A stretch of DNA of 64,000 bases from Candidatus Flemingiibacterium sp. Its GTDB lineage: Bacteria; Bacillota; Clostridia; Oscillospirales; CAG-272. The stretch's first letter is position 1, and every line of letters begins with the position of its first letter. Made by a program: the position numbers and the translations under genes. The DNA lies in NCBI GenBank assembly GCA_045589075.1, contig JAZNFI010000053.1:173-64172 (forward strand), in the 5' to 3' direction. This document shows, piece after piece, positions 1-19,505 of this stretch. The notes beneath the pieces are model-generated. The model saw only the letters and a program-made list of their open reading frames with translations, made no database searches and was not told the origin of the DNA.

Positions 1-3000
1 GCCTATCCATCAGGTGCTTGTAGAAAAGTGCGTTTCCGGATGGAAGGAAATCGAATTTGAGGTAATGCGTGACGGTGCAGGCAACGTAATAACCATTTGC
101 TCTATGGAAAACGTTGACCCCGTAGGCGTTCACACCGGTGATTCCGTGGTTGTAGCTCCCGCCGTTACACTTTCCGATGACGAGTATCAGATGCTCCGTT
201 CTGCAGCTCTCGACATTATCGAGGAGCTTAAAATTGAGGGCGGCTGTAACTGTCAGTTCGCTCTTCACCCTGAAAGCAAGGAATATGCGGTTATCGAGGT
301 TAACCCCCGTGTTTCCCCTTCCTCTGCTCTGGCTTCCAAGGCTACGGGCTACCCAATAGCAAAGGTTGCGGCGAAAATTGCAATCGGTTACACTCTTCCC
401 GAAATTCTCAACGCGGTTACGGGCACTACCTATGCCTGCTTTGAGCCTACCATTGACTATATGGTTGTAAAATTCCCCAAGTGGCCCTTTGATAAGTTTG
501 TTTACGCAAAGCGTACACTTGGAACACAGATGAAAGCAACGGGCGAGGTTATGGCTATCGGTACTTCCTTCGAGCAGGCTATGATGAAGGCTGTACGCGG
601 TGTTGAGATTGGCATGAACTACCTTTCTCACAAGAAATACCGTGAGCTTACTGACGAGGATATAGCATCGAGACTTCACAACGTGGACGACGAGCGTCTT
701 TTTATCGTTTTTGAGGCACTTCGCCGCGGAACAACCATTGAGAAGATTCATGAAATCACTATGATTGACGAGTGGTTCCTTAACAAGCTTCTTAACCTTA
801 TCGCAATGGAGAGAAAGCTGACTGGGTGCAAGATTACCGAGGAGCTTTACAAGGAAGCAAAGGTTCTCGGCTTCCCCGACAAGCTTATTGAGGAGCTTTC
901 GGGCAAGGCGCTTCCCAAAGGAATGCACAAGAGCGCCGTTTACAAGGTAGTTGACACCTGCGCCGCAGAATTCTCCGCAAACACTCCCTATTTCTACTCC
1001 ACCTACGACGACGAAAACGAGGCTGCCGAGTTTATCGAGAAGAAGAAAGACCCAAGTAAGAAAACGGTTATCGTTTTCGGTTCGGGTCCTATACGAATCG
1101 GTCAGGGCATCGAGTTCGACTATGCTTCGGTACACTGTGTATGGTCACTTAAAAAGGCTGGCTACGATGTGGTTATCGTAAACAACAACCCCGAAACCGT
1201 TTCCACCGACTTCGACACCGCCGACAGACTTTACTTTGAGCCTCTTACCCCCGAGGATGTAATGAACATCATCGAAACTGAAAAGCCTTTCGGTGTAGTT
1301 GTGGCATTCGGCGGTCAGACGGCAATCAAGCTCACAAAATATATGAGCGAGCACGGCGTAAACATTCTCGGAACTTCTGCCGACTCCATTGACGCGGCAG
1401 AGGACAGAGAGCGTTTTGACGCACTGCTTGAAGAAAACAAGGTGGCACGTCCCCAGGGCTACACCGTAATGACTACCGAGGAAGCCCTCACTGTGGCAAG
1501 CCGCATCGGCTACCCCGTTCTTATGCGTCCCTCATACGTTCTTGGCGGTCAGAACATGATTATTGCATTTACAGAGGACGACATCAAGGAATATATGAAG
1601 ATAATCCTTGCAAACAACATCGAAAACCCGGTGCTTATCGACAAGTACCTTATGGGTATAGAGCTTGAGGTTGACGCTATCTGTGACGGTGATGATATTC
1701 TCATTCCCGGCATTATGGAGCACGTTGAAAGAACGGGTATCCATTCCGGCGACTCCATTGCGGTTTATCCTGCATGGAATATTACGGACAAGCTTCGTGA
1801 GGAGATTATCCGGTGCACCAAAAATCTGTCTGTATCCCTTAAGATAATGGGTCTTGTAAATATCCAGTATCTTATCTATCAGAACAAACTCTATGTTATC
1901 GAGGTTAACCCCCGTTCTTCGAGAACTATCCCCTATATAAGCAAGGTTACGGGTGTTCCCATGGTTGACCTTGCAACCCGTTGTATGCTCGGCGAAAGGC
2001 TCGCTGATATGGGCTACGGTACGGGTCTTTACAAAACTTCCCCCTACGTTGCTATCAAGGTTCCCGTATTCTCTTTTGAAAAGCTTATGAACGTTGACAA
2101 CCACCTTGGTCCCGAAATGAAGTCCACCGGTGAGGTTCTCGGACTTGCAAGCACCCGTGAGGAGGCACTTTACAAGGGTCTCGTTGCGGCAGGCTACAAG
2201 CTTAAGAAGCAAGGCGGTATATTCATTACCGTCCGCGACTCCGACAAGTCTGAAATCGGCGAAACTGCAAAGAAGTTCTACGACCTTGGCTTCGAGCTTT
2301 ACGCAACACGCGGAACTGCAAAGATTATCGAGGACTACGGCATGAAGGTGAAGATTGTAGACAAGATTCACGAGGGCGACAACAACACCCTGAAGCTTAT
2401 TGAATCGGGCAGAATCGACTACGTTATCTCCACCTCTGCAAAGGGTCGTATTCCTACCCGCGACAGCGTTAAGATTCGCCGCAAGACGGTTGAGCGTGCT
2501 ATTCCCTGTCTTACTTCCATTGACACGGCAAACGCTATTGCTGACTGCCTAAAGAGCCGTTATTCACAGCACTCCACCGAGCTTGTGAACATCAACGATA
2601 TGCGTACCACCAAAGCTGCACTGAAGTTCACCAAGATGGAGGGCTGCGGCAACGACTATATCTACTTCAACTGCTTCGACCAGCGTATCGACAATCCCGA
2701 AGGACTTGCTATAAGACTCTCCGACCGTCATTTCGGCATTGGCGGCGACGGCGTAGTGCTTATCTGTCCCTCTGATGTTGCAGATGTTAAGATGCGTATG
2801 TTCAATCTTGACGGAAGCGAAGGAAGAATGTGCGGCAACGCTACAAGATGCGTGGCTAAATATATCGTGGACAACAAGATGGTTGACAAAGAGACCGTTA
2901 CCGTTGAAACCCTCAGCGGTATCCGCTCGGCAGATGTTACCAAGGTAAGCGGCGAGGTAAAGACTGTTACCGTTAACATGGGTAAAGCAGAGCTTAACCC

Positions 3001-3466
3001 CTCACTTATCCCCGTGAAGATGTCACTGCGCAACGTAATCGGCGTTCCTGCGCAGATTGCAGGCGGACGCTACCGTATCACCTGCGTTTCCATGGGCAAC
3101 CCACACTGTGTAGTTTTCGACGAGGACTTTGATGATACTCTTGACAATCTCGACCTTGAAACAATCGGTCCAAAGTTTGAAAACGACCAGCTTTTCCCTG
3201 AACGCACCAATACCGAGTTTATAAAGGTACTGAATCCCACAACTCTCAAGATGCGTGTATGGGAGCGTGGCTCGGGTGAGACCTTCGCTTGCGGAAGCGG
3301 TGCTTGTGCGGCAGTTGTAGCAGCGGTTGAAAACGGTTTGTGTCAGAAGAACACCGATATTACGGTGAAGCTCCGCGGCGGTGATTTGATTATCCGCTAT
3401 ACTGACGAGGCAGTATTCTTAAGCGGAGATGCGAATAAGATCTATGAAGGAACTATTATAATGTAA
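1..3466 (+). CDS. carB: Carbamoyl-phosphate synthase large subunit (5' end cut by window) continuing in frame, with no stop codon, into a diaminopimelate epimerase domain
   Basis: The frame of ORF 14..3466 stays open back to base 2. The translation shows both CarB ATP-grasp halves ([32 protein letters not shown]; [33 protein letters not shown]) and the MGS-like tail ([12 protein letters not shown]...YVISTSAKG). It then reads through into DapF sequence. Confidence 0.9.
2600..3466 (+). other. dapF: DapF (diaminopimelate epimerase)-homologous segment of the fused ORF
   Basis: From in-frame ATG 2600 the translation reads [23 protein letters not shown]...[18 protein letters not shown]...[10 protein letters not shown]...[17 protein letters not shown]. 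This is a full-length DapF-like fold with both Cys-containing motifs. No Shine-Dalgarno is seen before ATG 2600 or ATG 2636. Confidence 0.85.
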
Positions 3467-3574: not shown

Positions 3575-4600
3575 TTAACCAACGATACCGGAACGCTCAA
3601 TGCCACCGATAAGGTATCTCTGAAGGAAGACATACATTATAAGCAGAGGAGCAAGAATGAGGATACCGCAGGTGTTCTTGATCGCGGATTCATATAGATT
3701 CTGAGCCGCATATTGTGTATCCAAGGTTTTTGGTATGGCAATAATATCCGGCATCATAACCATCTTGGCCTTTGTAAAGAATACAGTGGTGTAGAAGTTA
3801 TCAGTCCACTGCCAAGAGAAGGCGAACAAGAAGATTGTAATCATCATAGGAACGGAAAGCGGGAGAATGATCGTAAGGAATGTTCTGAAAACTCCGCTTC
3901 CGTCGATGTAAGCAGATTCTTCAAGCTCATCAGGAACTCCACGGAAGAACTGACGCATCATAAAGATGTAAAGTCCGTTCTTAAACGCCAAGCCGCCTAA
4001 TGAAAGCAGAGCCAACGGCCAGTAGGAGTTATTAAGGTTCAGGGCTTCACCCATCAGAAGTTCAAATATTCCAAACACATCGAAAAATCTGAACTTCATG
4101 AACATAGAGAGTTGGAGAGTTCTGTGAGGAACTATCATTGTAAAGATAACAAGGAAGAATACCAGCTTGTTGCCCTTGAACTTGAACTTTGCAAGACCGT
4201 AACCGATTACGCAGCACATAAAGGTCTGAATGAGACCGCACAGCACCGAAAGCGTAAACGTGTTGAACAATGCTTCAATGTAACTGTTCTCGCTTATGAT
4301 AGCTCTGTAGGTGTCAAGTGTGGGGTACTTCGGAATGAGTTTTACCGTTACGTCTACAAAATCCTCGCGGCTCATAAAAGAACCGGAAATCTTTGCGAAG
4401 AACGGGAAAAGAATTACATATGAAATACCGATAAGAAGGACGAGTCTGAATATCTTGAAGACTACATTCGTGAGGAAGTTCAAGGTCAGATACCTAGACT
4501 TGAGACGCTCAAGCAGAGGTGTTCTTTCAAACTCAACTCTTATTTTGTTTTTGCTCTCCTTCATGATACGGGGAGCTTTTGGTGCCTGTTGAGAATTCAT
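3575..4600 (-). CDS. Carbohydrate ABC transporter permease (MalG/CUT1-type), distal pair
   Basis: EAA loop EESAYIDGSGVFRTFLTIILPLSVPMM and multiple hydrophobic helices. There is a ~45-aa Lys/Arg-rich N-terminal extension. The gap to the upstream permease gene is 12 nt. Confidence 0.85.
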   Translation of the reverse strand: MNSQQAPKAPRIMKESKNKIRVEFERTPLLERLKSRYLTLNFLTNVVFKIFRLVLLIGISYVILFPFFAKISGSFMSREDFVDVTVKLIPKYPTLDTYRAIISENSYIEALFNTFTLSVLCGLIQTFMCCVIGYGLAKFKFKGNKLVFFLVIFTMIVPHRTLQLSMFMKFRFFDVFGIFELLMGEALNLNNSYWPLALLSLGGLAFKNGLYIFMMRQFFRGVPDELEESAYIDGSGVFRTFLTIILPLSVPMMITIFLFAFSWQWTDNFYTTVFFTKAKMVMMPDIIAIPKTLDTQYAAQNLYESAIKNTCGILILAPLLIMYVFLQRYLIGGIERSGIVG

Positions 4601-4612
4601 TTTCTTACCTCC

Positions 4613-5572
4613 TTAATCGCGTTTCTGATAGAAGACATACGAGCTTAGAATCAGTGCCACCAAACCGATGATAAGAAGAACGATGAGGAAGTATATCCAA
4701 GCCATCGCCGAACTGAGAACATTACCGCCCGTTTGCTTGTACACGGTGGAGATGTAGGTCATAACCTGATTCGACTGCGACGTAAAAGAGTCGATTACGG
4801 TATATATCGCATTTACCAGAATCATCGGGCTTATCATCGGGAAGGTGATCTTCCAGAAGGTTTCCCAAGCGGTTGCACCGTCTATATCACAGGATTCGTA
4901 AATCGCGGGGGAGATAGACTGGAGACCTGCAAGGAAAATAAGCATCTGAACACCGGAACGGTTGATAATGTCGTAAATGTTGTTAACCATATTTACAACA
5001 TACTCAACAAGCTCTGTACCGACCTTCATGTTTTCAAACAATCGTTCGATGTCCACCGCCGACAGTATTTCGGAGGTGGTGTTTTGACCTGAACCGTCGT
5101 TAATACCGGACTCGGTATCGCCCATGTAATCAAGCATGGTGTTTGACTGGTCGATACTGTCTACAATACCGGTAGAAATAATTACCGGGATGAAGAATAT
5201 CGCACGGAACGCCGCACGGCCCATCATCTTCTGATTGAGAAGCACTGCCATGAAAAGTGAGAAAATTACGATAGCCGGAATATCAAATATAAGCTGCTGG
5301 ATACCGGATGTCAGTGTCTGAACAAAACCGGGATCTACAAAGAGAGCACTCTGATAGTTTTCCAAGCCAACGAACTCAAGGGTAAAACCGGCACCCTGTC
5401 CGATCTTAACCTTGTTAAAGCTGAACCGAATTGAGTCAATTACTATCGGAAGATAAATTATAATAAAGCTTAATACAAAGGGAGCGACAAATACATATCC
5501 CGAACGAGCTTTACGAGCGTCCAGAGAGGCTCCGCGCTTGCGTTTTTTAGATGCGCTAACTGTGTTATTCAT
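4613..5572 (-). CDS. Sugar ABC transporter permease (MalF/CUT1-type), distal pair
   Basis: EAA loop YESCDIDGATAWETFWKITFPMISPMI. Basic N-terminus followed by a TM helix. The gap to the upstream gene is 16 nt. Confidence 0.85.
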   Translation of the reverse strand: MNNTVSASKKRKRGASLDARKARSGYVFVAPFVLSFIIIYLPIVIDSIRFSFNKVKIGQGAGFTLEFVGLENYQSALFVDPGFVQTLTSGIQQLIFDIPAIVIFSLFMAVLLNQKMMGRAAFRAIFFIPVIISTGIVDSIDQSNTMLDYMGDTESGINDGSGQNTTSEILSAVDIERLFENMKVGTELVEYVVNMVNNIYDIINRSGVQMLIFLAGLQSISPAIYESCDIDGATAWETFWKITFPMISPMILVNAIYTVIDSFTSQSNQVMTYISTVYKQTGGNVLSSAMAWIYFLIVLLIIGLVALILSSYVFYQKRD

Positions 5573-5588
5573 TTATACCTCTCCTTTC

Positions 5589-8500
5589 TTATTTAACTCG
5601 AGCGAACTCAAGTGCTCCGACTGTATAGGTTTTACCATCGTCAACTACAGTAATGTCAAAGTTATTATAGTTAAGGATGAATGCTTTATTCCCTTCGTAT
5701 GTAACCTTAACGATTCTTCCGTCGTCAGAGGTGTACTTAGTATAAACGTAAGCATTCGGGTCCACCTTATCGGTATTGAAATCGCTGGCCTCGCCATTTC
5801 CGGCGTAAGAAACTGCGTCCCTACCGTAGGTTGCCACAAGGCGTTCTATAAGGAGAGCCGCCTTTTCATCCTTTTGTGCTAATATCTCTTCCTCCAGCGC
5901 GGAAGCAAGTGCAGCCTCTTCTGCTGCTATTTTGTCTGCTTCAATCTCCTCCTCGGAAGGAATACGCTCACCGATAAGGAACTCGTGGTCAACTATCTGC
6001 TTATCCTGAAGATCTGCAAGAATCTCATTGAGTGTTGTGTAAAGCTCCACAAGCTCATCATACCAGATGTCAAACCCCACAGAGTAGTACTTGCTGTACT
6101 GCTTATCTTCCTTAAGAAGCGAAGTATTCTGTGCTGAAAGAGTGAAATACATGGATGAACCGTTCTCTATTGCCTTGAGAAGCTCATATTGTGTGTCACC
6201 CGCCATGTTAATAGCACCGCCGGAGAAGTTTACGCATCCGTGAAGTACCATACCCATGAAAGGTACCGCCTCGCCGGCATTGGAGTAACGGCTGGAATCG
6301 AGCGGTACACCGATAATATGCTCTGCATACTGAGCTGCGTACATATTACCGCCTTCAATCATAACGCTTTCGTAGTTTTCCTCAAGAGAAGCAAGCGCAT
6401 CCATTGTAAACTCCTTGGAATCCTCGCGGTTGTAAGGATCTTTCTTGTCGAAATCGGAGTTAAGATCTGTGCCCAGTGTGGATACTGAAACACCTATAGG
6501 AGCGAGCTTGGAATAATCCGCATTAAAGCCCTCAAGAAGATATTCATATACGGAAGGTGATACTGCCAGTGCGTGACCACGCTCGAAGGATTGGAGTGTG
6601 GAATCGTAGTAACGCTTGGTGGTGTAACGGTTATCCATAGTCTTTACAAGATGCTTCTTGTTGGAGATACCGTCAAATGAACCAAACCCTGCGATATTTG
6701 CAAAATCGAAGTCGGGATACACTCCAATGTCATTTTCGGAAGCATAGCTTACAAAATCGGTAAAGCCGTCGTTGCCGCCAACCGCTTTTTCAAATTCCAC
6801 ATTGTATGGAGCAGTTGCGGTCATTCCTCCGTTTGTATAACCTGTAAGCTTGAAGTTAACATTTGTTATGTTCGCCTCATCCAGCTTCTCGTACATTGTA
6901 CGAAGATCATCAAAGGAAGTAAGTGGCTTCAGTACCTTAACAGGAACAGAGAGAATTTTCTCCATTGTCTCCATAGCACCGAAGGTCTCAATATAGAGAG
7001 GAATTGAATCGCCGGCGTCTTCAATCTGAGTAAGACTTCCCTTTTTGATTAGGTAGTCTCTGTAAGCCTTCGCCATGCCTACATAACTGTCTTCGTAATA
7101 GTCATCAATACCTGCCGCCTCGGCTGACTCATCAGAGGTCAGCATAATGTACTTGATACGGTAGCTTCCGGTGTATTTGCGTTCGGAGACTACTGTATAT
7201 TTAGCATTTGAACCAACTGAAATGGACTCTGCAAGATTGTAAGTGTCCTTAGGTCTTGGATAGAATGTGGTGTAAACCGTGTTGTACTTATGGAGAGCTC
7301 CGCCGTGCTCGGTACTGATTTCGGCAAGTGAGTCACCCTCTTCAATTATTGCCAAAAAGCCGCTGGACTGTTTGCCCTCGGGCATTTTAGGAGCAACCTC
7401 ACCAGCTTCGATCTGCGCCTCGGTAAGCTTCGTAGGATTCCAGCTGTTGGACTCAACAATTCCGTAGACCGGCATCCTCATTATTTCCCTGTTCTGTCCA
7501 CTGACCTCTTGATAAGCATAGTCCTGACCGTAGATCTTACCGGTGATGGTAATCTGCTTGTTTTTCACATCCTCGAAACGTACCAGTGCGCCGGAACCGT
7601 CGGGTATAAAGGTGTAACCCTCCCATTCGGAAGAACCTGCACCAAACCAAGGAAGCAAACTGATGTACGTAAGCTGATACGAGCTTTCGTCAAAACGAAT
7701 ACCGTTAGCAGGGAGACGTACGTCGAGATTTCCATCTTCATCGAGAGTGTACTCAAGAGAAAGTCTGAAGAGAACAGGTACAACGTCGGTACCCTCATAA
7801 CCTGTGATGAGATGATCCTCTTCAAGCATTTCGTACGTATACTCGGGGCAGTACGTCTTTATAATATCTTCGATCATATTAAGGTCACGTTCAGACGCAT
7901 AGGGGTCGAAGGTGTAGATTGCCATTTGCTCACATATGGGGAATGAAGCAATAAGCTCACCTCTCAAACGCTCGGTCAGCGAGGGAGCGTTCGGATCCTG
8001 CAAGGTGTAGTACGCGTTCAAACGGTTTCTGGCTGTACCTTCGGGAACGTTCGCGAGAATAAGCTCCTCAAAACGCTCCTTTTTGATCTGCTTGGGAACC
8101 AGCTTACGGGTCTCCACACGACCCATAGTATACTCCACACGCACACCGTTCTTGATTTTCTTTACGTTGATCTGACCTCTCTGACAAGCCTCAATAAAGC
8201 TGAACATTTCGATCTCGGATGAGTTGTCAGAGTACTTGATAACGATCTGGGAAAGCAGTTCCTCTTTTACCGATTTAGCGGAGGAGGTGCTTGCCACATC
8301 ATATGGATTCGAGAAGAGAATCTGACCGGTTTTAGTATTAACATAGGCGACCTCTCCGGAAATAGGCTCAACATACAGCTCCATACCTGCCTTTGAGAGG
8401 TATTTTGTCATTGTTGCAAGCTTATCCTCGGGAGTTTTAAATTCCTGTGTCAGATAATCTATAGTTGTAAGTCCGGTTTCTGGATCGATACCGGGTACAA

Positions 8501-8609
8501 TTGCCGCATCCGCAGCCGCATTAGATGCACTTACGGGAAGCACTGCTGAGAACATTCCAAAAACCGTTGCAACAGTCAGGAATGCCGATAATAATCTGAA
8601 TTTTTTCAT
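5589..8609 (-). CDS. Secreted ~1000-aa protein of unknown function (reminds me of DUF5696-type proteins; unverified)
   Basis: N-terminal signal MKKFRLLSAFLTVATVFGMFSAVLPVSA/SN with no lipobox Cys. SD TAGGAG lies upstream. I see no catalytic motif I can name. An acidic helical stretch (EEEIEADKIAAEEAALASALEEE) lies near the C-terminus. The gene is embedded in the ABC operon. Confidence 0.8.
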   Translation of the reverse strand: MKKFRLLSAFLTVATVFGMFSAVLPVSASNAAADAAIVPGIDPETGLTTIDYLTQEFKTPEDKLATMTKYLSKAGMELYVEPISGEVAYVNTKTGQILFSNPYDVASTSSAKSVKEELLSQIVIKYSDNSSEIEMFSFIEACQRGQINVKKIKNGVRVEYTMGRVETRKLVPKQIKKERFEELILANVPEGTARNRLNAYYTLQDPNAPSLTERLRGELIASFPICEQMAIYTFDPYASERDLNMIEDIIKTYCPEYTYEMLEEDHLITGYEGTDVVPVLFRLSLEYTLDEDGNLDVRLPANGIRFDESSYQLTYISLLPWFGAGSSEWEGYTFIPDGSGALVRFEDVKNKQITITGKIYGQDYAYQEVSGQNREIMRMPVYGIVESNSWNPTKLTEAQIEAGEVAPKMPEGKQSSGFLAIIEEGDSLAEISTEHGGALHKYNTVYTTFYPRPKDTYNLAESISVGSNAKYTVVSERKYTGSYRIKYIMLTSDESAEAAGIDDYYEDSYVGMAKAYRDYLIKKGSLTQIEDAGDSIPLYIETFGAMETMEKILSVPVKVLKPLTSFDDLRTMYEKLDEANITNVNFKLTGYTNGGMTATAPYNVEFEKAVGGNDGFTDFVSYASENDIGVYPDFDFANIAGFGSFDGISNKKHLVKTMDNRYTTKRYYDSTLQSFERGHALAVSPSVYEYLLEGFNADYSKLAPIGVSVSTLGTDLNSDFDKKDPYNREDSKEFTMDALASLEENYESVMIEGGNMYAAQYAEHIIGVPLDSSRYSNAGEAVPFMGMVLHGCVNFSGGAINMAGDTQYELLKAIENGSSMYFTLSAQNTSLLKEDKQYSKYYSVGFDIWYDELVELYTTLNEILADLQDKQIVDHEFLIGERIPSEEEIEADKIAAEEAALASALEEEILAQKDEKAALLIERLVATYGRDAVSYAGNGEASDFNTDKVDPNAYVYTKYTSDDGRIVKVTYEGNKAFILNYNNFDITVVDDGKTYTVGALEFARVK

Positions 8610-8632: not shown

Positions 8633-10759
8633 TTACAAACGGTACGAAATTTCGGTGATTATGCTGGAAATAAAGCTTACTATCTTAGAAAGCAGCGTAG
8701 AGAAAAGTACACCGATAAACATGATTATCGCCATACCGAGTATGGTACCAACGGAAGTAAGAATGTTCTTCGAGAAGCCGTAATCGTGAGTAACCATCGA
8801 GCCGAAGAAGATAAGTAGTCCTGCCCAGATGAACGCGAAAGAAACGAGAAGATTGATGATGGTCGCCTCTGAAGCTATCGAGAAGTTAGAAATGATAACT
8901 GAAGGAATGATAAGAATGGGCAGAGGAACAAGTGCGTAGCTGGTAGCAACGAAAATGTCCTTGAGGCTGCCTTCACCGTCGAACAGCGTGGTGAGACACC
9001 AGTTAGCTATGGTCCAAAGAAGCAGCGGAACCACAACAGCTATTATCTGTACGAATATGGTGGAGGACTGCTGACGTGGATCAAAAATGTAACCGGTTCC
9101 CACATCCTGATAGTAGAATGCAAGCACAGTAAGCGCAATCCATACTAAGGAAGCTCTTACCGAGCCGCGCTGCTCATGCTTAAGGTCCCAGAATCCGTCA
9201 AAAGGATGTACTACCAGATGCTGGGCATACATAAGCTCCTCCCAGAACGTCTTTCTGCCCTTTTTAAGCTGGGTTTTCTTGTTGAGCTTTGTAGCATACT
9301 TGTTGAAGAGGACGAAAAGCACCACAAGAACGATAACCGTGATAGGAATGAGCAGAATCCAATCCGAGATCCATGCTTTTCTTATCTCTTTGAAAGACTC
9401 TGAATAATTATCGGTATCGTAGGCTGCCTTGTAATACTCAAGAGACTCCTCATATTCCGCATTTCTGTAAAGACTCTTACCAATGCCTATATAGGCAGTG
9501 TCGAAGTTGTTGTTTCTCTTAAGAATCTCGGTCCAGAAGTCAACGGTCTTATCATAGTTGCGCTCATTGGTATTTTTGATGGCATCAATAAGCAGATCAC
9601 CGTATTCGGTCCGTCTGAATACCGTAATACTGTCAGCGTTTTTGTCAAGAACGAGAATATCATTCTCAAGGTAAGCAATCGCCTCAACAGACAGAATGTT
9701 ACCAAGCTGCTGACCCATGTCGCCAAATACGAAGAGAAGGTTTCCGTCTTCATCGTATGTGAAGATCTTGGAACGCTTTTCGTCGATTATCGACCATGTT
9801 CCCTCCGGGCCTACAGCCGCATCGATAATCTTGGAAGCGCCGGTGATCTTAGCGGTGGAGAGGTTTGTTACATTAACCTCACCGCCGGGATTAAAGAATC
9901 CATTGCGCTTCATAATATCGGCACCAGCCGTATTGAGCTTCTTCACAGGCGAATATTCGCTGTTCTTACTCTTAATAGAAGCCTGCTGTGAGCTTTCGGG
10001 AATGGAAGATGTTGTTACATAAAGGAATCCGTTTTCATCAATTGTTATATTGTTGAACTCGGTGGAAACGTACTGCTGAGAAAGTGCTCTCTGCTCGTCA
10101 GTCTGGAAACGTCTCCAAAGAATGTCAAGAGCGTCTACAGTTACCTTCTGAGCACCGATAAAGCCCTGGAACACACCGTCCTCATTGATAGCTATAACAC
10201 CCATGTAGGTGGTAGATGATACTACAAAAATACGACCGTAAGCATCAACTGCTATTGCAACCGGTTTATAGATGGAGCCGGCGGGGAAAACGTCTGCATC
10301 CGGTTCTTCAATGGTCTTATAGTAAGTACCGTCAAGCTGACACATTACAATACGGTTGTTGTCGGTATCGGCAATGTAGATGTACTCATCGGTAACAAAC
10401 ACACCGGACGGAGCCTTAAGACTATCCGGAACTCCGTTCATGTTGATGAATTCGCCAATTGTAAACTTAAGCTTGTAGTATCTGTCAAGAACTACGATTC
10501 TGTTGTTCGCCGCGTCTGCTATGTAAACATTTTTGTTAGCATCCACAACAAGGTCACGCGGGTCGTCAATAGGAGTATCGAGTCCCATATACTGGGAGTC
10601 AACCTTTCTGTCCGGCACGTAAGCATCGGGAGACATAAGAGCGTAACCATCTATAGAGTACGTGTAGGTTGCATAGGGTGTTATTGCTCCGAGTGGGAGA
10701 CAGCCGAGCATAAGCAAAATGCTGGCCGCAAGGGTAAATATTTTAGAGATTTTTTTCAT
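8633..10759 (-). CDS. Exported six-bladed NHL-like beta-propeller fused to a TPR-like segment and a C-terminal Yip1-type polytopic membrane domain
   Basis: Signal-like N-terminus. Blades include NVYIADAANNRIVVLD, YIYIADTDNNRIVMCQ, GRIFVVSS, GFLYVTTSS, KIFTYDEDGNLLFVFG and DILVLDKNADSITVFRR. A TM helix (ILLIPITVIVLVVLFVLF) is followed by HPFDGFWDLKHEQRGS and about five more TM helices. SD AAGGAGGG lies upstream. Confidence 0.8.
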   Translation of the reverse strand: MKKISKIFTLAASILLMLGCLPLGAITPYATYTYSIDGYALMSPDAYVPDRKVDSQYMGLDTPIDDPRDLVVDANKNVYIADAANNRIVVLDRYYKLKFTIGEFINMNGVPDSLKAPSGVFVTDEYIYIADTDNNRIVMCQLDGTYYKTIEEPDADVFPAGSIYKPVAIAVDAYGRIFVVSSTTYMGVIAINEDGVFQGFIGAQKVTVDALDILWRRFQTDEQRALSQQYVSTEFNNITIDENGFLYVTTSSIPESSQQASIKSKNSEYSPVKKLNTAGADIMKRNGFFNPGGEVNVTNLSTAKITGASKIIDAAVGPEGTWSIIDEKRSKIFTYDEDGNLLFVFGDMGQQLGNILSVEAIAYLENDILVLDKNADSITVFRRTEYGDLLIDAIKNTNERNYDKTVDFWTEILKRNNNFDTAYIGIGKSLYRNAEYEESLEYYKAAYDTDNYSESFKEIRKAWISDWILLIPITVIVLVVLFVLFNKYATKLNKKTQLKKGRKTFWEELMYAQHLVVHPFDGFWDLKHEQRGSVRASLVWIALTVLAFYYQDVGTGYIFDPRQQSSTIFVQIIAVVVPLLLWTIANWCLTTLFDGEGSLKDIFVATSYALVPLPILIIPSVIISNFSIASEATIINLLVSFAFIWAGLLIFFGSMVTHDYGFSKNILTSVGTILGMAIIMFIGVLFSTLLSKIVSFISSIITEISYRL

Positions 10760-10770
10760 TTTTACCCTCC

Positions 10771-11643
10771 TTAGTCCTTCATACCCGACGAACCCATGGT
10801 TTCGATGATGTTACTCTGCGTTATAATAAATACAGAAATCGGCACAGCCATCATGACAACCTGGGAAGCCGCTGCAGCACCCGCACGGGCAATACCGCCG
10901 GATACAATCTGGTTAATAGCGTAGTTAAATGTCTTTAACTGTTCTGAATAAATATAGATTGAGTTACCTGCATTCCACAGTCCCTGGAACGAGTAGATTA
11001 TAAGTGTAAGCCACGCAGGCTTAACCATCGGCATCGCGATTTTTAAGAATGTGTAGAACTCGGAAGCACCGTCAAGACGCGCTGATTCAAGAACTGCATC
11101 GGATACCGCAGTCTCCATGAACTGCTTCATGAGGTACAAGCCAAGGGATGTACACCAAGCGGGAACAATTATCGCAAGATATGTATCAACCCAGCCAAGT
11201 GTACTCATGGTAAGGAAGTTAGCGATACCTGTAACGGTAGAGTTAAACATAAGAGAAAGTACGATAACTTCAAATATCCATCTGCGGCCGGGGAATTTAA
11301 TCTTAGCAAGAGCGTATGCCGCAAGCGAGGAAAGAAGAAGGTTTCCTGCTGTACCTGAAACAGATATGAATACCGTATTGAATATGTATCTTGAGAAAGG
11401 AACCCAAGAGGTGCCCATGAGCTTAAACAAGTCTGTAAAGTTCTTGAGCGTGGGGCTCATAACGTAGAAACGAGGTGGAAACATCCACAGCTCATCAAGA
11501 GGCTTCAGTGACTGCATGATAACGTAAAGCATCGGCAGGAACATGAATGCGCCCAAAAGGATGAGCATTATATTAATTCCTATGTCGCCTCCAACCGAAC
11601 GGTTGAGGACAACTTTATGTTTTCTGGTTCTTAATCTTGCCAT
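10771..11643 (-). CDS. Carbohydrate ABC transporter permease (MalG/CUT1-type), proximal pair
   Basis: EAA loop LESARLDGASEFYTFLKIAMPMVKPAW. The gap to the upstream permease gene is 1 nt. Confidence 0.85.
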   Translation of the reverse strand: MARLRTRKHKVVLNRSVGGDIGINIMLILLGAFMFLPMLYVIMQSLKPLDELWMFPPRFYVMSPTLKNFTDLFKLMGTSWVPFSRYIFNTVFISVSGTAGNLLLSSLAAYALAKIKFPGRRWIFEVIVLSLMFNSTVTGIANFLTMSTLGWVDTYLAIIVPAWCTSLGLYLMKQFMETAVSDAVLESARLDGASEFYTFLKIAMPMVKPAWLTLIIYSFQGLWNAGNSIYIYSEQLKTFNYAINQIVSGGIARAGAAAASQVVMMAVPISVFIITQSNIIETMGSSGMKD

Positions 11644-11644
11644 A

Positions 11645-12601
11645 TTATTGTCCCACCTTCGATAAGAGTTTCTTGATAATCAGGTTGCATCCTACCATGA
11701 CCACAAAGAGTACAACCGCGATGGTAGAAGAATAACCAACCTCGACACGCTGTCCGCCGTAGTCCTCAAGGTGATGCATGGTGGTGTGCGCCGCATAGTC
11801 AACCGACGGGAAGCCTGCAAGTGCCGTAACTACCGCACCAAATCCGAATGAACCTGTAATTGCCATAACCGCACCGAACATAAGCTGGGGCTTCATTGTC
11901 GGCAGAGTTATGTACCAAAGCTCCTGCCATCTGTTCTTAACGCCGTCAACAGCACCTGCCTCATAGAGAGACTTGTCGATTGTCTGGAGACCTGCGATGA
12001 ACGAAAGAAAGGAGGTTCCGAGTGAGGTCCAAAGAGCAACTACAATACAGAGTCCCATAACGTAGCTTGCATCCTGGAACCAAAGAATCGGGCTTCGGAT
12101 AAGGCCGAACTCCATGAGCCAAGCGTTTACATAGCCATAGGAGTCGCCGGAGAAAAGCACGCTCCAGATAAGGTAAACCGAACCGGCGATGGAGGGCGCG
12201 TAGAAGATAAGTGTTACTACCGCACGAACCTTGGGTCCAAGCTCGTTGATAAACCATGCAACGAGAAGGGATATAACATAGGATGCGGGGCCTGTTATAG
12301 ACGCAAACACGAGAGTGTTCTGCGCCGCAGTTATAAATATGTCATCATCCAGGAACAATCTGATATAGTTGTCGAGGAAAACGAAGGTAGGAAATTCGAG
12401 AAGGTTGAATTCCGTTAAACTCAGTATAATCGAAAGGACGACCGGGAACACGGTGAAGACCGTAAAGAGAATCATAAAAGGTGCGATCATAAAATACGCA
12501 GTTTTATTACGGGCTATCTCTTTAAGAGTCCACTGGAATTTGGTCATGTCCTTACGGGAAGTCGGCTTTGGCTGATTGGCAGCCGCTGCGTTCTGTGACA
12601 T
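11645..12601 (-). CDS. Sugar ABC transporter permease (MalF/CUT1-type), proximal pair
   Basis: EAA loop YEAGAVDGVKNRWQELWYITLPTMKPQL. SD AAGGAGAG lies 6 nt before the ATG at 12601. Confidence 0.85.
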   Translation of the reverse strand: MSQNAAAANQPKPTSRKDMTKFQWTLKEIARNKTAYFMIAPFMILFTVFTVFPVVLSIILSLTEFNLLEFPTFVFLDNYIRLFLDDDIFITAAQNTLVFASITGPASYVISLLVAWFINELGPKVRAVVTLIFYAPSIAGSVYLIWSVLFSGDSYGYVNAWLMEFGLIRSPILWFQDASYVMGLCIVVALWTSLGTSFLSFIAGLQTIDKSLYEAGAVDGVKNRWQELWYITLPTMKPQLMFGAVMAITGSFGFGAVVTALAGFPSVDYAAHTTMHHLEDYGGQRVEVGYSSTIAVVLFVVMVGCNLIIKKLLSKVGQ

Positions 12602-12695: not shown

Positions 12696-15686
12696 TTAGT
12701 TCTGCGCTGCTATCGCCTCTTCGATGCTCTGGCCAAGCTCAAGTGTAGGAAGATCGAATTCCTGACGTTTTCTGGTGATTTCCTTGTTAATGTCGTCAAT
12801 ATAGCTGAGCATTTCTTCAACAGGATCCGAATTATTATTGTATGCATCAAGGAATGCAAATCCAACATAACGCGCAATAATATATCCGCCGGGCATTTCG
12901 GGGATTATTGCCAGATTGTTGTACTGTGCAAGGATATTTTCAAGATCTGTTGTAGACCACGGCAGGGATTCAAGAGCTTCCTTGTTAGCGGTAGCGTACA
13001 TCGCGCCCTGACCTACGATAGCAACCATTTCGTTAGCGTAATGTGACTGTGTTTCTGCTGTGGTGTACCAATCCATGAATCTCCAAGCATTTTCACGTTT
13101 ATCACATCCATTCATCATTACCATAGCTGTTACCGTGGAAATAGCGGTGTTATTGATATTGCCTTCCTCGTCCTCCATACCTATAATCGGTACGAACTCC
13201 CAAAGATCGCGTATTTCCGTTGCGAATATTGAAAGCTGATTGTACATGGATACGTAGTCGGAGAAGATAATAGGCATCTCACCTGTTCTGAAGCGGTTAG
13301 CCGGATCAAAGGTAACAGGGAAAGAATACTGAGTAAAGTAAGAACAGAGTTTGTCAAATGCCTCAAGTGATGTGTTGGTATCAAGATTTATCTTGGAGCC
13401 GTACCAATTACGGTTGGAGCCGTCGCCGTAAGCTTCGCTGTTAGGATCGTCGTACTCCTTGCCGTCGTACAGATCCTCGCCCATCTGATAGAGGAAGAGC
13501 TGAAGTCCGGGATAGTTTGACGGGACACCAACCTGCATGTTGTTATACTGAAGAACGGGAATTGCCTCCATAAGATCGTCCCATGTCCTTGGAATCTCGA
13601 TTCCCAGTTCTGCAAGTATGTCCTTGCGATAGAACATCATCGAGAAGGACTGGGTCTCGGGAAGACCGTAGGTTGAACCGTAAAGCGACAGCGGAACTAT
13701 TGCAGCCTCGGAGAACCTGGAGGTTACCTCCTCAAATGTATCAAATTCGTTGAGAGGCTGGACCGCATTACGAATAGCATACTGAACAGGAGTGCTCTGC
13801 GCCTGCTCCATCGCTACATCGGGACCGGTTCCGGAAAGGGTCGCGGGAAGGAGCGTACCGCTTACAACAAGTCGGAGATTTACTCCGATGTTGGTTGTGG
13901 AGGTAAAGTAGTTGTCGCACATTGCTCGAACTACCTGCGCCTGGTCGCGTCCTGTCTGTACCCAAACATCGATAACGTCCTCTTCAGCCAGCTCTACCGT
14001 AGCACCAAGATTGGAATAATCGGTGAAGAACGACATCACGAAGGAGCTTATTTCAAACCATAACGCTTCAAAGAAGTTCGCCTCAGCTCTGGGAAGTGCT
14101 GTTCCTGTGGGCTGAATGCAGATATAGTCGAATGAGAGCGGCTGACTTCTTACGCTGTTAAGCCATGTTCCAAGTGTACCGATGTAGCTCTTTAAGGTTC
14201 CGAGGTTATTTGCAACCTCATCTTCGTCGGTAGCCATCTTCTTAAGGACACGAGCGATGTTGTCAAGAGTTGCCGTGTTGCTGCCCTTTTCACCGGTAAT
14301 CTCGGTGATGAGTTTCGAAACCTCATCAAGGACAAGATACTGTTTATACATATCCCTGATGGTATCCGGAATGAGTCCGTTAAAGTTGTAGTCACGGTAT
14401 TCGTCCGGGGTAGCGCCGGTTATCTGAAGAATTTTCAGATAGTCTCTGTTTATAGAGTCAAGCACGTTCTGTACACGACCGATTGTATCGCTCATGTTTC
14501 CGAGAACAACTTCAAACTCGATTGTATATTCCTTACCTTCTTCAAAGTAGAATTTAAACTCGGTTTCGCCGTTGCCAAGAGGTTTTGTTACCCATTCTTC
14601 TGTGAAATTAAACTGAAGATAATTAGCTTCCTCAAAGGGGATCTCACCGTTTATGTAAATGCGGCGAGAGGTATACATACCCGCAAGATCTGCCTGCTTG
14701 TAGCGAGGAACTATGTCATAAAAACCTGTCTTCTCGCACACAAAGGTATATCTTAGCCACTGACCGACACCTTGCCACTTTGTTCCGCCTATATAGTTAA
14801 GCTTGGAAAGCGAAGGGCTCTGGGGTTGTGTCAGAGCTGACGATCTGTCGTTGGCGGGATAGATGGTCTGATCTGATGTGGCGTCGGTAAACTCCGCCTG
14901 GAAGATGATGGGCTCTGCCCCTTCTGCCGAAGCGTCCCCGCACTTCTCGAGATATTCCTCATACGTCGGGAGATCCTCATACGGGAAAAGAGTTATGGAC
15001 TTTAAGATGAGTACCTCACGGCTCGCTTCAAGGGAAATGGTGTGTTCACCTTCCGTAAAGACAAACTCGTAAGGATGCACATTGTAACCGGTGGAATCTT
15101 CAAAAACGTAGGTTCTCCATTCGGGAGAAATGTACTTCATAGGTCTTACGTCATTGCCCTGAAGGTCTTGAACGAACGATTTTGAACCATCCTCATTAAT
15201 TACATAATCATCGCGCCACACTTTACCGATAGCAAGGTATCTCGCACCCTTAAACGGATACTCGCCGTCAACACGGAATTTCCTCTCGATGTCGGTGGAT
15301 TTACCGTCAGCCGGGAAGCTGTATTCAATCTTGATTGCGTATTTCGCATCGGCCGGGATTTCAACATCCCACGCCACAATGCCGGAATTGGGCATATATA
15401 AAGTCCCGTCCTCAACACGCACATCTGCGGTCGTAGCTTCTTTGTTGTAGTCAAGTGCATCAATCACAATAGACTCGGAAGCACGCTTAACGCCGGCATT
15501 TCTGTCGGCATATTCAGCGTACTCCTCGGCGTTTAGAAGGTCCTGAACGTCAGCAATATCGTAGCCAACGGTAGAAGAAGCCTTCTCCTCGGTTTCGCCG
15601 GTGTCAGCCGCTACGCTGAACGCGGAACCGAGTGTCACAAGTGATAAAAACAACGCAATTAACCTTGTTAACTTGGTTTTTTTCAT
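12696..15686 (-). CDS. Giant (997 aa) extracellular solute-binding protein: N-terminal ~550-aa extension with duplicated beta-sandwich-like modules plus a C-terminal family-1-type SBP domain
   Basis: I chose the start at ATG 15686 (MKKTKLTRLIALFLSLVTLGSAFSVAA/D), preceded by AGGAGG. The 48 codons further upstream in the ORF look non-coding. The C-terminal part is SBP-like (SFSMMFYRKDILAELGIEIPRTWDDLMEAIPVLQ). An internal repeat is visible: YAIKIEY..RKFRVDGEYPFKGARYL versus YDIVPRY..RRIYINGEIPFEEANYL. Confidence 0.85.
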   Translation of the reverse strand: MKKTKLTRLIALFLSLVTLGSAFSVAADTGETEEKASSTVGYDIADVQDLLNAEEYAEYADRNAGVKRASESIVIDALDYNKEATTADVRVEDGTLYMPNSGIVAWDVEIPADAKYAIKIEYSFPADGKSTDIERKFRVDGEYPFKGARYLAIGKVWRDDYVINEDGSKSFVQDLQGNDVRPMKYISPEWRTYVFEDSTGYNVHPYEFVFTEGEHTISLEASREVLILKSITLFPYEDLPTYEEYLEKCGDASAEGAEPIIFQAEFTDATSDQTIYPANDRSSALTQPQSPSLSKLNYIGGTKWQGVGQWLRYTFVCEKTGFYDIVPRYKQADLAGMYTSRRIYINGEIPFEEANYLQFNFTEEWVTKPLGNGETEFKFYFEEGKEYTIEFEVVLGNMSDTIGRVQNVLDSINRDYLKILQITGATPDEYRDYNFNGLIPDTIRDMYKQYLVLDEVSKLITEITGEKGSNTATLDNIARVLKKMATDEDEVANNLGTLKSYIGTLGTWLNSVRSQPLSFDYICIQPTGTALPRAEANFFEALWFEISSFVMSFFTDYSNLGATVELAEEDVIDVWVQTGRDQAQVVRAMCDNYFTSTTNIGVNLRLVVSGTLLPATLSGTGPDVAMEQAQSTPVQYAIRNAVQPLNEFDTFEEVTSRFSEAAIVPLSLYGSTYGLPETQSFSMMFYRKDILAELGIEIPRTWDDLMEAIPVLQYNNMQVGVPSNYPGLQLFLYQMGEDLYDGKEYDDPNSEAYGDGSNRNWYGSKINLDTNTSLEAFDKLCSYFTQYSFPVTFDPANRFRTGEMPIIFSDYVSMYNQLSIFATEIRDLWEFVPIIGMEDEEGNINNTAISTVTAMVMMNGCDKRENAWRFMDWYTTAETQSHYANEMVAIVGQGAMYATANKEALESLPWSTTDLENILAQYNNLAIIPEMPGGYIIARYVGFAFLDAYNNNSDPVEEMLSYIDDINKEITRKRQEFDLPTLELGQSIEEAIAAQN

Positions 15687-15896
15687 CAACATTTCCTCCT
15701 GCCAAGAATTACTTTGAAGGGTATAAATTTCTAAAACAGCCAAGCGGTCACGTTTTGTATCTCTGAAACGCCCATGGGTGTGGCAAAAGTCAAGGCGCCA
15801 ACGCAAAGTTATGCACAAAAAGTGTCGCAAAGCAGTGAAATAAGTCGGCGCACAACCACTTCAACATGGCAAGTCCGCCGATTTTTTCATACCTAT

Positions 15897-15925
15897 ATAA
15901 TAACACAACAGCAACAAAAAGTCAA
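15897..15925 (-). promoter_or_regulatory. Candidate sigma-A promoter of the ABC operon (TTGACT-17-TATTAT)
   Basis: On the minus strand, TTGACT (15925-15920), a 17-nt spacer, then TATTAT (15902-15897). This would give a ~200-nt leader before ATG 15686. Confidence 0.4.
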
Positions 15926-17849: not shown

Positions 17850-18281
17850 TCAATGATTCTTGGTACAGGTAGCGCAGTGACCGGCGCAGCCTTTTCGAAG
17901 GTCGTGCTTGATGCCCTTTTTGTCGTAGTAATTAGCGATAGCATCCTTTACCGCTTCCTCGGCAAGGACAGAGCAATGAATTTTCTGTGGCGGAAGCCCG
18001 TCAAGTGCCTCGACAACAGCCTTATTTGTAAGCTTTAACGCTTCCTCAACAGTCTTGCCCTTAATAAGCTCGGTCGCCATGGAAGATGTTGCAATAGCCG
18101 CTCCGCATCCGAATGTTTTGAATTTTACATCCTCAATGACCTCATCATCATTTATTTTGAGATACATCTTCATAATATCGCCGCAGGTCGCATTTCCTAC
18201 CTCGCCCACAGCATCCGCGTTCTCAATCTCACCCACATTTCTGGGATTAGCGAAATGATCCATAACCTTTTCACTATACAT
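17850..18281 (-). CDS. nifU: Fe-S cluster assembly scaffold protein (NifU/IscU N-domain type)
   Basis: MYSEKVMDHFANPRNVG...GNATCGDIMKMYL...FKTFGCGAAIATSS...KIHCSVLAEEA. SD AAGGAGA lies 7 nt before ATG 18281. Confidence 0.9.
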   Translation of the reverse strand: MYSEKVMDHFANPRNVGEIENADAVGEVGNATCGDIMKMYLKINDDEVIEDVKFKTFGCGAAIATSSMATELIKGKTVEEALKLTNKAVVEALDGLPPQKIHCSVLAEEAVKDAIANYYDKKGIKHDLRKGCAGHCATCTKNH

Positions 18282-18326
18282 AACAAAATCTCCTTTTAAC
18301 ACGTTATCATTTGCTGTTCAATGACA

Positions 18327-19505
18327 TTACCGAGCATTCTTCTCCTCATAAAGTGGGCTCATCATCCTTAGTTTATCAACGATTGGCGGAAGCTTTTCAA
18401 GAATGTAGTCTATATCCTCATCGGTAGTATCTCTGCCGATAGAAAGTCTGAGTGAGCCGTGTGCCTGCTCCACGGGAACGCCGATAGTGAGCAGCACGTG
18501 GGAAGGCTCAAGAGACGCCGACGAACAGGCAGAACCTGTAGAAGCGCAGATGCCTGCCATATCAAGGAGCAAAAGTAAGCTTTCACCTTCAATGAACTCG
18601 AAGGAAACATTGACATTGCCTGGAAGTCTGCCCTCGCGCGGACCATTAAGACGAACATTTGGTATCTTCAGTATTTCATCAATAAGTCTGTCGCGCATTG
18701 CCTCAACCGCGGACATCTCGGGAAGTCCTTTGACAGCATCTTCAAGAGCCTTTGCAAATCCCACAATGTAAGGAACATTTTCAGTCCCTCCGCGCCTGCT
18801 TCTCTCCTGACCTCCGCCATCGATAAGAGTATTAATCCGAGCGCCGTTCCTGATGTAGAGTGCACCGATTCCCTTTGGAGCGTGAATTTTGTGTCCCGAC
18901 ATTGACAGCATATCAACGCCAAGCTCTGCCGCATCCACGGGAACAGCTCCAACAGCCTGAACAGCATCGGTAAACACAAGGGTCTTGGGGTTCTTTGCCT
19001 TGACAGCCGCCGCAATTTCAGCGATAGGCTCAATCGTACCTATTTCATTATTTGCGAACATTACGGCAACGAGTATGGTTTCGTCGCACATTGCCGCCGT
19101 TACCTGCTCAGGAGTTACCCTGCCCTCCGAGTCCGTGTCAAGGTATGTCACACTAAATCCTTCCTTTTCGAGAGATTTCATAGTGTGGAGAACCGCATGA
19201 TGCTCTATCTTTGTTGTAATTATATGCTTGCCGCGATTCATATGGGCATGTGCCGCGCCTTTTATTGCCCAGTTATCAGCCTCGGACCCGCTTGCTGTGA
19301 AATATATCTCATTCGGTTTGGCACCGATAAGAGATGCTATCTTTTCTCTCGCCGCAGTGATGGCTGCCTTAGCTTCCCTGCCCATTTTATGAAGGCTTGA
19401 GGGATTTCCGTATATTCCCGCAAGGTACGGAAGCATGGCTTCCAGCACCAGAGGTGAAGTGGACGTGGTCGCCGCGTTGTCGGCGTACACCAATCTATCC
19501 GTCAT
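18327..19505 (-). CDS. nifS: Cysteine desulfurase (NifS type)
   Basis: VYADNAATT, SGHKIHAPKGIGALY (PLP lysine) and the catalytic loop STGSACSS. Confidence 0.9.
   Translation of the reverse strand: MTDRLVYADNAATTSTSPLVLEAMLPYLAGIYGNPSSLHKMGREAKAAITAAREKIASLIGAKPNEIYFTASGSEADNWAIKGAAHAHMNRGKHIITTKIEHHAVLHTMKSLEKEGFSVTYLDTDSEGRVTPEQVTAAMCDETILVAVMFANNEIGTIEPIAEIAAAVKAKNPKTLVFTDAVQAVGAVPVDAAELGVDMLSMSGHKIHAPKGIGALYIRNGARINTLIDGGGQERSRRGGTENVPYIVGFAKALEDAVKGLPEMSAVEAMRDRLIDEILKIPNVRLNGPREGRLPGNVNVSFEFIEGESLLLLLDMAGICASTGSACSSASLEPSHVLLTIGVPVEQAHGSLRLSIGRDTTDEDIDYILEKLPPIVDKLRMMSPLYEEKNAR

Follow-up and report, generated by a model that had tools for sequence, protein, structure and literature searches.

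This work concerns a 64,000-nucleotide stretch of DNA from Candidatus Flemingiibacterium sp. (assembly GCA_045589075.1, contig JAZNFI010000053.1, positions 173 to 64,172 of the forward strand), hereafter called the window, and in particular a cassette of seven genes on its minus strand that begins with the gene of a giant solute-binding protein (SBP) of the kind that serves ATP-binding cassette (ABC) importers. The SBP gene is a single intact open reading frame (ORF), 12696..15686, which encodes 996 amino acids (aa). According to sequence profiles and the predicted structure, the C-terminal ~400 residues of the product are an SBP of the oligosaccharide type. This core is ordinary; what is new is a conserved and hitherto undescribed unit in the N-terminal part of the protein, the absence of a lipid anchor, and the conserved cassette, which has likewise not been described before. 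The protein from the window is a genuine full-length member of a family of ~1,000-residue CUT1-type SBPs that is large and uncharacterised. The features along the gene, in the direction of transcription and in the coordinates of the window, are as follows:

15897..15925, minus strand: promoter-like site, TTGACT, 17 nt, TG-TATTAT, ~200 nt upstream of the start codon (consensus match only)
15695..15700, minus strand: ribosome-binding site AGGAGG (sequence reading)
15606..15686, minus strand: signal peptide, aa 1-27 (MKKTKLTR, then LIALFLSLVTLGSAFSV, then AA followed by D), Sec type, no Cys (sequence features, model)
15501..15605, minus strand: disordered acidic linker, aa 28-43, then a pair of short helices, aa 44-62, in which Y56 and Y59 are invariant (alignment, model)
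14979..15500, minus strand: beta-sandwich module 1, aa 63-236, CBM6/35-like by predicted fold (hhalign, AlphaFold2, Foldseek)
14910..14978, minus strand: inter-module segment, aa 237-259, with a short helix (model)
14496..14909, minus strand: second beta-sandwich (module 2), aa 260-397, a homologue of module 1 (hhalign, model, alignment)
14148..14495, minus strand: predicted four-helix bundle, aa 398-513 (AlphaFold2, alignment)
13977..14147, minus strand: connector, aa 514-570, with a strand (517-526) and an amphipathic helix (538-552, FFEALWFEISSFVMSFF) (alignment, model)
12759..13976, minus strand: two-lobe SBP domain of the CUT1 type, aa 571-976 (Pfam, PDB profile search, Foldseek)
12696..12758, minus strand: C-terminal tail, aa 977-996, with neither a membrane segment nor a sorting signal, and stop codon (sequence)

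The start codon, ATG at 15686, is preceded by AGGAGG (15700..15695) at a distance of 8 nt, and the promoter-like site is the top consensus match of the region (10/12, with the extended TG); a scan of the 5' untranslated region and leader against Rfam revealed no riboswitch, leader RNA or other element. In the NCBI annotation (P0001, 998 aa) the gene begins with an ATG at 15692, two codons upstream, which adds only the residues ML and lies 2 nt from the ribosome-binding site, and the longest in-frame extension, from a TTG at 15830, adds 48 residues with neither a hydrophobic core nor a lipobox. None of the alternative starts yields a lipobox, because the first Cys of the chain is residue 249; the possibility that another start codon provides one, which was raised in the initial annotation as a potential objection to its own claim of a missing anchor, can therefore be set aside. 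The same holds for its concern that the long gene might be split in related genomes, since the gene is a single ORF in 81 out of 81 related loci.

In the 996-aa protein, Pfam and NCBIfam recognise SBP_bac_8 and SBP_bac_1 alone (71.8 bits against a threshold of 27 and 67.9 bits against a threshold of 26, respectively), both at aa 587-885, and the two-lobe fold is modelled at aa 571-976, in agreement with the earlier observation that the likeness to SBPs is confined to the C-terminal part. A profile search of the PDB placed Lin1841 first (5ysb, E 3.8e-17). Foldseek searches with the full-length AlphaFold2 model retrieved SBPs alone, with E-values from 3e-17 to 1e-14, template modelling (TM) scores of 0.7-0.83 on the target (9xf5, 5ysb, 3k01, 3uor) and 13-20% identity, and the N-terminal half was therefore modelled separately. 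The best matches were the binder of cycloisomaltooligosaccharides (9xf5), the binder of beta-1,2-glucooligosaccharides (Lin1841, 5ysb-f), the cycloalternan binder 5f7v and binders of maltodextrins, and by both profile and modelled fold the domain is closest to proteins that bind oligosaccharides. Every feature of a CUT1 SBP that could be tested was found: a score above the Pfam thresholds, a two-lobe predicted fold, and an adjoining pair of permeases with EAA loops.

Neither Pfam nor NCBIfam yielded a match to the N-terminal half of the protein from the window, which answers the domain search recommended in the initial annotation. Its statement that this region contains two similar beta-sandwich-like modules is nonetheless well supported. 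A direct BLAST comparison of the two N-terminal halves gives a weak match (E 0.007, 24% identity over 62 aa). When sub-profiles from an alignment of 84 full-length homologues (alignment A1) are compared with hhalign, aa 62-236 match aa 262-398 with a local E-value of 4.6e-17, a global one of 9.9e-18 and a probability of 98.8-99.1%, and the controls (reversed module 2, the helical bundle and two pieces of the SBP domain) all yield E>0.05. Judging from these profiles, the duplication of the module is real but old. AlphaFold2 models both copies as beta-sandwiches (aa 73-234 and 260-394); the prediction for the full-length protein with A1 has a predicted local distance difference test (pLDDT) value of 86.7 and a predicted TM-score (pTM) of 0.80, and that for residues 42-565 alone has values of 92.6 and 0.89, respectively. 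The three peptides quoted in the earlier description were located at residues 116, 323 and 680. Common to both modules is the motif R-x-x-[IV]-[DN]-G-x-x-P-F-x-x-A-x-Y-L, and module 1 differs from module 2 by an insertion of ~30 aa (aa ~157-190). Module 2 starts with a highly conserved loop, TIYPxxDRxSAITxPQ...LNxIGxxKWQxxGQW, and in the A1 alignment invariant Trp, Tyr, Arg and Asp residues are numerous both in this module and in the SBP domain.

According to Foldseek, the model of the N-terminal half has the jelly-roll fold of carbohydrate-binding modules (CBMs), with matches to structures from the families CBM6, CBM35 and CBM22 (E 6e-8 to 1e-4; TM-score 0.54-0.68 on single-module targets). 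These include tandem arrays, such as the CBM35 modules of the Paenibacillus 598K glucosyltransferase (5x7o, E 6e-8), the CBM22 modules of Xyn10C and the malectin-like modules of ANX1/2, as well as modules inside enzymes, such as the CBM35 of Xyn30D and the CBM35 of CITase. Among eight relatives scanned with Pfam together with the window protein, module 1 of P0071 (33.3 bits) and of P0076 (29.4 bits) exceeds the threshold of CBM_35 (28), and module 2 of P0117 (25.8 bits) exceeds that of GH115_C (24.1). The CBM-like character originally ascribed to the modules is thus supported by their predicted fold, which may be described as CBM6/35-like. The whole N-terminal half (aa 42-565; 13992..15563, minus strand) was also aligned by Foldseek to the C-terminal protoxin region of the Cry1A/Cry1C toxins (8w7n, 4w8j, 9qxq) over 570-600 columns, with E-values from 6.5e-7 to 8e-5 and low TM-scores. 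The C-terminal protoxin region of these toxins likewise alternates CBM-like beta-rolls with helical bundles, and given the low TM-scores the likeness may reflect just a shared domain grammar.

The helical linker noticed earlier behind the two modules is a four-helix bundle (aa 398-513) in the AlphaFold2 model. The loop that follows its first helix carries the signature of the family, PDxYRDY[NG]F, and no other stretch of the front half is as strongly conserved. Mean identity of the homologues to the window protein amounts to 47% in module 1, 60% in module 2, 58% in the bundle, 57% in the connector and 59% in the SBP domain. By this measure the front half is about as constrained as the SBP domain, which argues for its being an integral part of the protein and not a loosely attached CBM.

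The signal peptide is composed of a basic n-region, 17-19 hydrophobic residues, and V-A-A followed by D at a site with small residues in positions -3 and -1; in the model there is a helix at aa 6-22 and next to it a disordered stretch at aa 20-41. The segment aa 9-27 has a mean Kyte-Doolittle hydropathy of 2.17 across 19 residues, so that it could be long enough to span the membrane. The lipobox motif [LVI][ASTVI][GAS]C is absent, in keeping with the original remark that the signal peptide contains no Cys, and the remainder of the chain has no further hydrophobic segment and no C-terminal sorting signal. The missing lipoprotein anchor, also reported in the initial annotation, is a trait of the whole family: among 81 species-level homologues the strict lipobox motif occurs in 4 and a permissive one in 10, in the position that corresponds to L-G-S in the window protein. 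On the other hand, 77 of the 81 have small residues at -3 and -1 (A-x-A) that close an uncharged stretch and are followed by an acidic D or E (the rule applied here being permissive), which is a pattern like that of signal peptidase I. A minority subclade of giant SBPs carries L-x-G-C in place of L-G-S and keeps the A-x-A site downstream; it comprises the relatives P0042, P0043, P0054, P0057, P0058, P0070, P0073, P0081 and P0092 and is found in the loci L006, L012, L017, L023 and L042. It seems that the giant-SBP family has switched between a lipoprotein signal and a plain secretory signal. The window holds no second SBP that could be used as an internal lipobox control, but a single such control is available in the Paenibacillus-like genome L061, where an ordinary SBP encoded 7 kb upstream has the canonical lipobox IVSAC and the giant SBP has none. 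The earlier proposition that retention at the surface "must" depend on partners or on an uncleaved anchor was worded too strongly.

The family to which the protein belongs is widespread. A search of 5.8 billion proteins gave 559 matches, the best 120 of which are ~970-1,120 residues long, with query coverage of 95-100% and identity down to 45% (apart from a few partial sequences outside these ranges of length and coverage), and a scan with one genome per species found relatives in at least 580 species. The carriers are mostly uncultured Clostridia of the gut and rumen, among them Candidatus Flemingiibacterium (at 73% identity), Oscillospiraceae and 'Eubacteriales', and they include one isolate, Bacillus sp. 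FJAT-28004; the cluster members of its branch are Paenibacillus proteins labelled merely 'extracellular solute-binding protein'. When the N-terminal half was compared with 1.84 billion representatives, 1,853 clusters at 50% identity were matched, 823 of them at E<=1e-30. In the best 150 of these 823 the architecture is constant, and the N-terminal unit opens proteins that are 930-1,450 residues long; a few short proteins among them stop where the match stops, as contig-truncated genes do. Pfam revealed no informative additional domains in the longer variants of the family (1275-1454 aa), and full-text searches of the literature found nothing on the giant-SBP family, on DUF5696 (PF18952) or on the cassette.

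The cassette runs in the order SBP, permease P1, permease P2, a protein with NHL, TPR-like and Yip1 parts, a DUF5696 protein, permease P3 and permease P4. All seven genes lie on the minus strand and the SBP gene comes first; the other six are:

11645..12601, minus strand: permease P1, UgpA/MalF type, 318 aa, with EAA loop (57-88% identity in all loci)
10771..11643, minus strand: permease P2, UgpE/MalG type, 290 aa (profile matches, locus comparison)
8633..10759, minus strand: NHL-Yip1 membrane protein, 708 aa (found in every locus long enough)
5589..8609, minus strand: secreted DUF5696 protein, 1006 aa (Pfam DUF5696, E 1.4e-147)
4613..5572, minus strand: permease P3, UgpA/MalF type, 319 aa (profile matches, hydrophobicity)
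3575..4600, minus strand: permease P4, UgpE/MalG type, 341 aa, which closes the cassette (profile matches, locus comparison)

The same order of seven genes was found in virtually every sufficiently long locus among the 81, over a range of identities from 73% to 37%, and this includes the locus of the Bacillus/Paenibacillus-like isolate. The second pair of permeases, the secretion of DUF5696, the constant order of seven genes and the strong conservation of the front half had escaped the initial annotation. The four permeases, all of which show EAA loops in their translations, form two complete and diverged pairs of the MalF/MalG type beside one SBP, P1 and P3 being 24% and P2 and P4 28% identical. 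P3 contains an extra loop of ~75 aa after its third hydrophobic segment (residues ~140-215), acidic and rich in Ser and Thr at first and helical thereafter. From the inferred topology this loop should face outward, as the P2 loop of MalF does, and it could dock the SBP. The NHL-Yip1 protein comprises a signal peptide, an NHL beta-propeller, a TPR-like stretch (aa ~399-456) and a C-terminal Yip1 domain with five hydrophobic segments; its signal peptide has a near-lipobox, L-M-L-G-C, which recurs in close relatives. The DUF5696 protein has a signal peptide as well, with no lipobox and no other hydrophobic segment. Signal peptides are present on all three extracytoplasmic proteins and membrane segments in the Yip1 protein alone, and two of the three, the SBP and the DUF5696 protein, are without an anchor of their own. 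The profile of the DUF5696 family matches weakly a segment of the TIM barrel of the GH129 alpha-N-acetylgalactosaminidase NagBb (5wzn), a resemblance at the sequence level that is no more than suggestive; a search with the single DUF5696 protein against PDB sequences gave no match, and Pfam at relaxed thresholds on 38 DUF5696 proteins added nothing. The operon lacks a gene for the ATPase, which is encoded at another site; in 14 loci, an ATPase that resembles MsmK and contains a TOBE_2 domain is found within 10 kb.

The genes that flank the cassette encode ROK proteins, IscS-like enzymes, the MsmK-like ATPase and housekeeping functions. In the window, the cassette is preceded by IscU-like and IscS/NifS-like genes (17850..19505, minus strand), and among its relatives, L002-L010 included, an Aminotran_5 gene recurs at a distance of ~1 kb on the upstream side in 15 loci. 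These neighbours indicate that the cassette is embedded in a conserved order of housekeeping genes rather than in an island for sugar utilisation. On the other side, the plus strand of the window (14..3466) encodes the large subunit of carbamoyl-phosphate synthase, cut by the start of the window, and a complete diaminopimelate epimerase (DAP_epimerase at aa ~870-1150) in one frame with no stop codon between them, which is either a carB-dapF fusion or the result of a lost stop codon.

We propose, with a probability of about 0.5, that the cassette encodes a cell-surface machine that captures, processes and imports a glycan, and that the anchorless SBP is held in place by its membrane partners. 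This proposal is based on the duplication and the CBM-type fold of the modules, the SBP domain of the oligosaccharide type, the numerous invariant Trp, Tyr, Arg and Asp residues in module 2 and in that domain, the family-wide lack of a lipobox together with the prevalence of a motif like that of signal peptidase I, the lipoprotein nature of the ordinary SBP in L061, the constancy of the cassette, the signal peptides of the three extracytoplasmic proteins, the weak resemblance of DUF5696 to GH129 and the MsmK-like ATPase near 14 of the loci. In such a machine the beta-sandwiches would keep a large or polymeric glycan near the cleft of the SBP, the secreted DUF5696 protein, possibly glycosidase-like, would process it, and the cleft would take up the resulting oligosaccharide and pass it to one or both pairs of permeases. 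The SBP and the DUF5696 protein could be retained by docking non-covalently to the propeller and TPR region that the Yip1 protein would expose outward, to the loops of the permeases, or to both. Several observations weigh against this proposal. The window protein has no match to a CBM family of Pfam at E<=1 and does not belong to CBM35 or CBM6 by sequence, and in the Foldseek alignments its modules are only 7-16% identical to CBMs, with E-values no better than 1e-5 to 1e-8. Substrate-targeting CBMs are not usually so evenly conserved and invariant, and a front half that is conserved like the SBP domain, within an invariant architecture, fits protein docking equally well. The match between DUF5696 and GH129 extends over 69 residues at E 4e-4 and covers no catalytic residues. 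The cassette sits among housekeeping genes, unlike typical polysaccharide-utilisation loci; no glycoside hydrolase or regulator was recognised in it, and a survey of the flanks in related loci found no constant glycosidase and no constant regulator, so that the substrate cannot be inferred from the neighbours. The presence of one SBP with two pairs of permeases is not explained by the proposal, and both the binding of glycans by the modules and the contacts of the SBP with its partners are putative.

Several other explanations of the front half and of the missing anchor deserve consideration. It is possible, although we tend to doubt it, that the N-terminal unit is mainly a protein docking or positioning device, which fixes the SBP to the NHL-TPR-Yip1 protein, to DUF5696 or to the loop of P3, and that the CBM-like fold is an inherited scaffold. 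This would agree with the even conservation of module 2, bundle and connector (60%, 58% and 57%, against 59% in the SBP domain), with the peak of conservation within the front half, which falls in a bundle loop, PDxYRDY[NG]F, with the constant architecture in the best 150 of the 823 clusters, with the pTM of 0.80 for the whole chain, which suggests a fixed arrangement of the domains, with the lack of a CBM match at the sequence level, and with the outward-facing TPR-like stretch available on the Yip1 partner. However, the matches to the fold are overwhelmingly true carbohydrate-binding modules, relatives exceed the Pfam threshold of CBM_35, and the Trp, Tyr, Arg, Asp and Asn residues that are conserved within module 2 and ahead of it resemble a sugar site; moreover, docking and glycan binding are not mutually exclusive. 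A quite improbable alternative is that the modules bind the glycopolymers of the cell's own wall and thereby serve as a non-covalent anchor in the manner of LysM or SLH domains, rather than in the recognition of nutrients. In its favour, the SBP has no anchor and is yet needed near its permeases, and a cassette that lies among housekeeping genes, where neither a glycosidase nor a regulator recurs, would suit an ever-present ligand. However, the modules are conserved across Clostridia and Paenibacillus, whose wall polymers differ, and no likeness to known wall-binding domains was found with Pfam or Foldseek.

The retention of the SBP could also be explained without any special mechanism, if the signal peptide were not cleaved and acted as an N-terminal membrane anchor, a tether similar to that of a lipoprotein. 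The 19 hydrophobic residues at aa 9-27, with their mean hydropathy of 2.17, would suffice to cross the membrane, the flexible acidic linker that comes after them looks like a tether, and the minority homologues with L-x-G-C at the position of L-G-S suggest that membrane tethering is probably the required state of the family. We nevertheless regard this explanation as unlikely, since 77 of the 81 homologues retain A-x-A followed by D or E, as expected for signal peptidase I, and a helix-breaking Gly lies in the middle of the hydrophobic region. The idea that the long gene is an artefact of assembly or annotation, i.e. that a CBM protein has been falsely fused to an ordinary SBP or that a wrong start hides a lipobox, is refuted by the comparative data and its remaining probability is negligible. 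No sign in its favour was seen, as the SBP region has no break of frame or composition. The ORF is the same in 81 independent genomes, in most of which tblastn matches span residues 1-996; 120 full-length homologues come from independent sources; the N-terminal part is matched by 823 clusters and has the N-terminal position in the best 150 listed; and the alternative starts bring no lipobox.

It is tempting to go one step further than the proposed glycan-capturing machine and to consider the cassette as an undescribed ABC import machine of monoderm bacteria, in which the anchorless giant SBP and a glycosidase-like DUF5696 protein would be assembled on a propeller/TPR/Yip1 scaffold and feed two pairs of permeases, as a Gram-positive counterpart of Sus-like systems, with the front unit of the SBP serving both in assembly and in glycan capture. 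This extension is speculative and we consider it rather doubtful. The SBPs of Gram-positive ABC importers are normally regarded as lipoproteins of ~400 residues. The giant SBPs are over twice the usual size, possess a conserved front half and have lost the lipid anchor, and they occur in hundreds of species from gut, rumen and soil. If the parts indeed form one complex, this would constitute a new way for monoderm bacteria to arrange the capture of nutrients at their surface, and it would assign roles to the orphan families DUF5696 and bacterial NHL-Yip1 in abundant, mostly uncultured gut Clostridia. Direct testing is possible, since the cassette is also present in cultured strains of Paenibacillus, for example in Paenibacillus sp. 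FJAT-27812 (WP_053376531.1). The basic picture of the carbohydrate ABC importer is not overturned by these results, and the statements about function are what we infer from them.

Among known systems, the closest to the C-terminal ~400 residues are the oligosaccharide SBPs of the CUT1 type, which share the same two-lobe fold: Lin1841 of Listeria innocua (5YSB-5YSF), Lmo0181 (5F7V), MalE/MalX, and the cycloisomaltooligosaccharide binder of Tepidibacillus decaturensis (PDB 9XF5; PMC13084667). As in the cassette described here, CUT1 systems have a permease pair of the MalF/MalG type directly after the SBP gene and an ATPase that is encoded elsewhere. However, the known CUT1 SBPs are chains of 366-403 residues, to which the protein from the window adds ~570 residues at the N-terminus; it is only 13-20% identical to them and has no lipobox, and its operon differs from theirs in that it encodes permeases in two pairs as well as two large accessory proteins. 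The front half compares with CBM6 and CBM35 modules (5X7O; CsxA, 2VZP; Clostridium thermocellum, 2W1W; agarase, 2CDP) and with the tandem CBM22 modules of Xyn10C (4XUP), with which it shares the jelly-roll fold and the tandem layout. In contrast to these, the modules of the giant SBP are attached to the binding protein of a transporter rather than to an enzyme, and the window protein shows no match to them at the level of sequence; they share a motif of their own, always precede a four-helix bundle, and are conserved like the SBP domain.

At the level of the whole cassette, the resemblance to the Sus-like systems of Bacteroidota and to the polysaccharide-utilisation loci of Gram-positive bacteria is one of functional analogy and not of homology. 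In the former, tandem CBM-like surface domains (SusE/SusF and the surface glycan-binding proteins) stand beside a transporter and a glycan-processing protein. The envelope is a different one, though, the transporter is of the ABC type here and TonB-dependent there, and the cassette includes neither a regulator nor a confirmed glycoside hydrolase. With respect to the NHL-Yip1 protein, the YknWXYZ system of Bacillus subtilis, an ABC system of the exporter type involved in toxin resistance, has a subunit of the Yip1 family, YknW. YknW possesses neither an NHL propeller nor TPRs and that system has no SBP; nonetheless, with no homology implied, YknW sets a precedent for a bacterial Yip1 membrane protein as an accessory of an ABC transporter.

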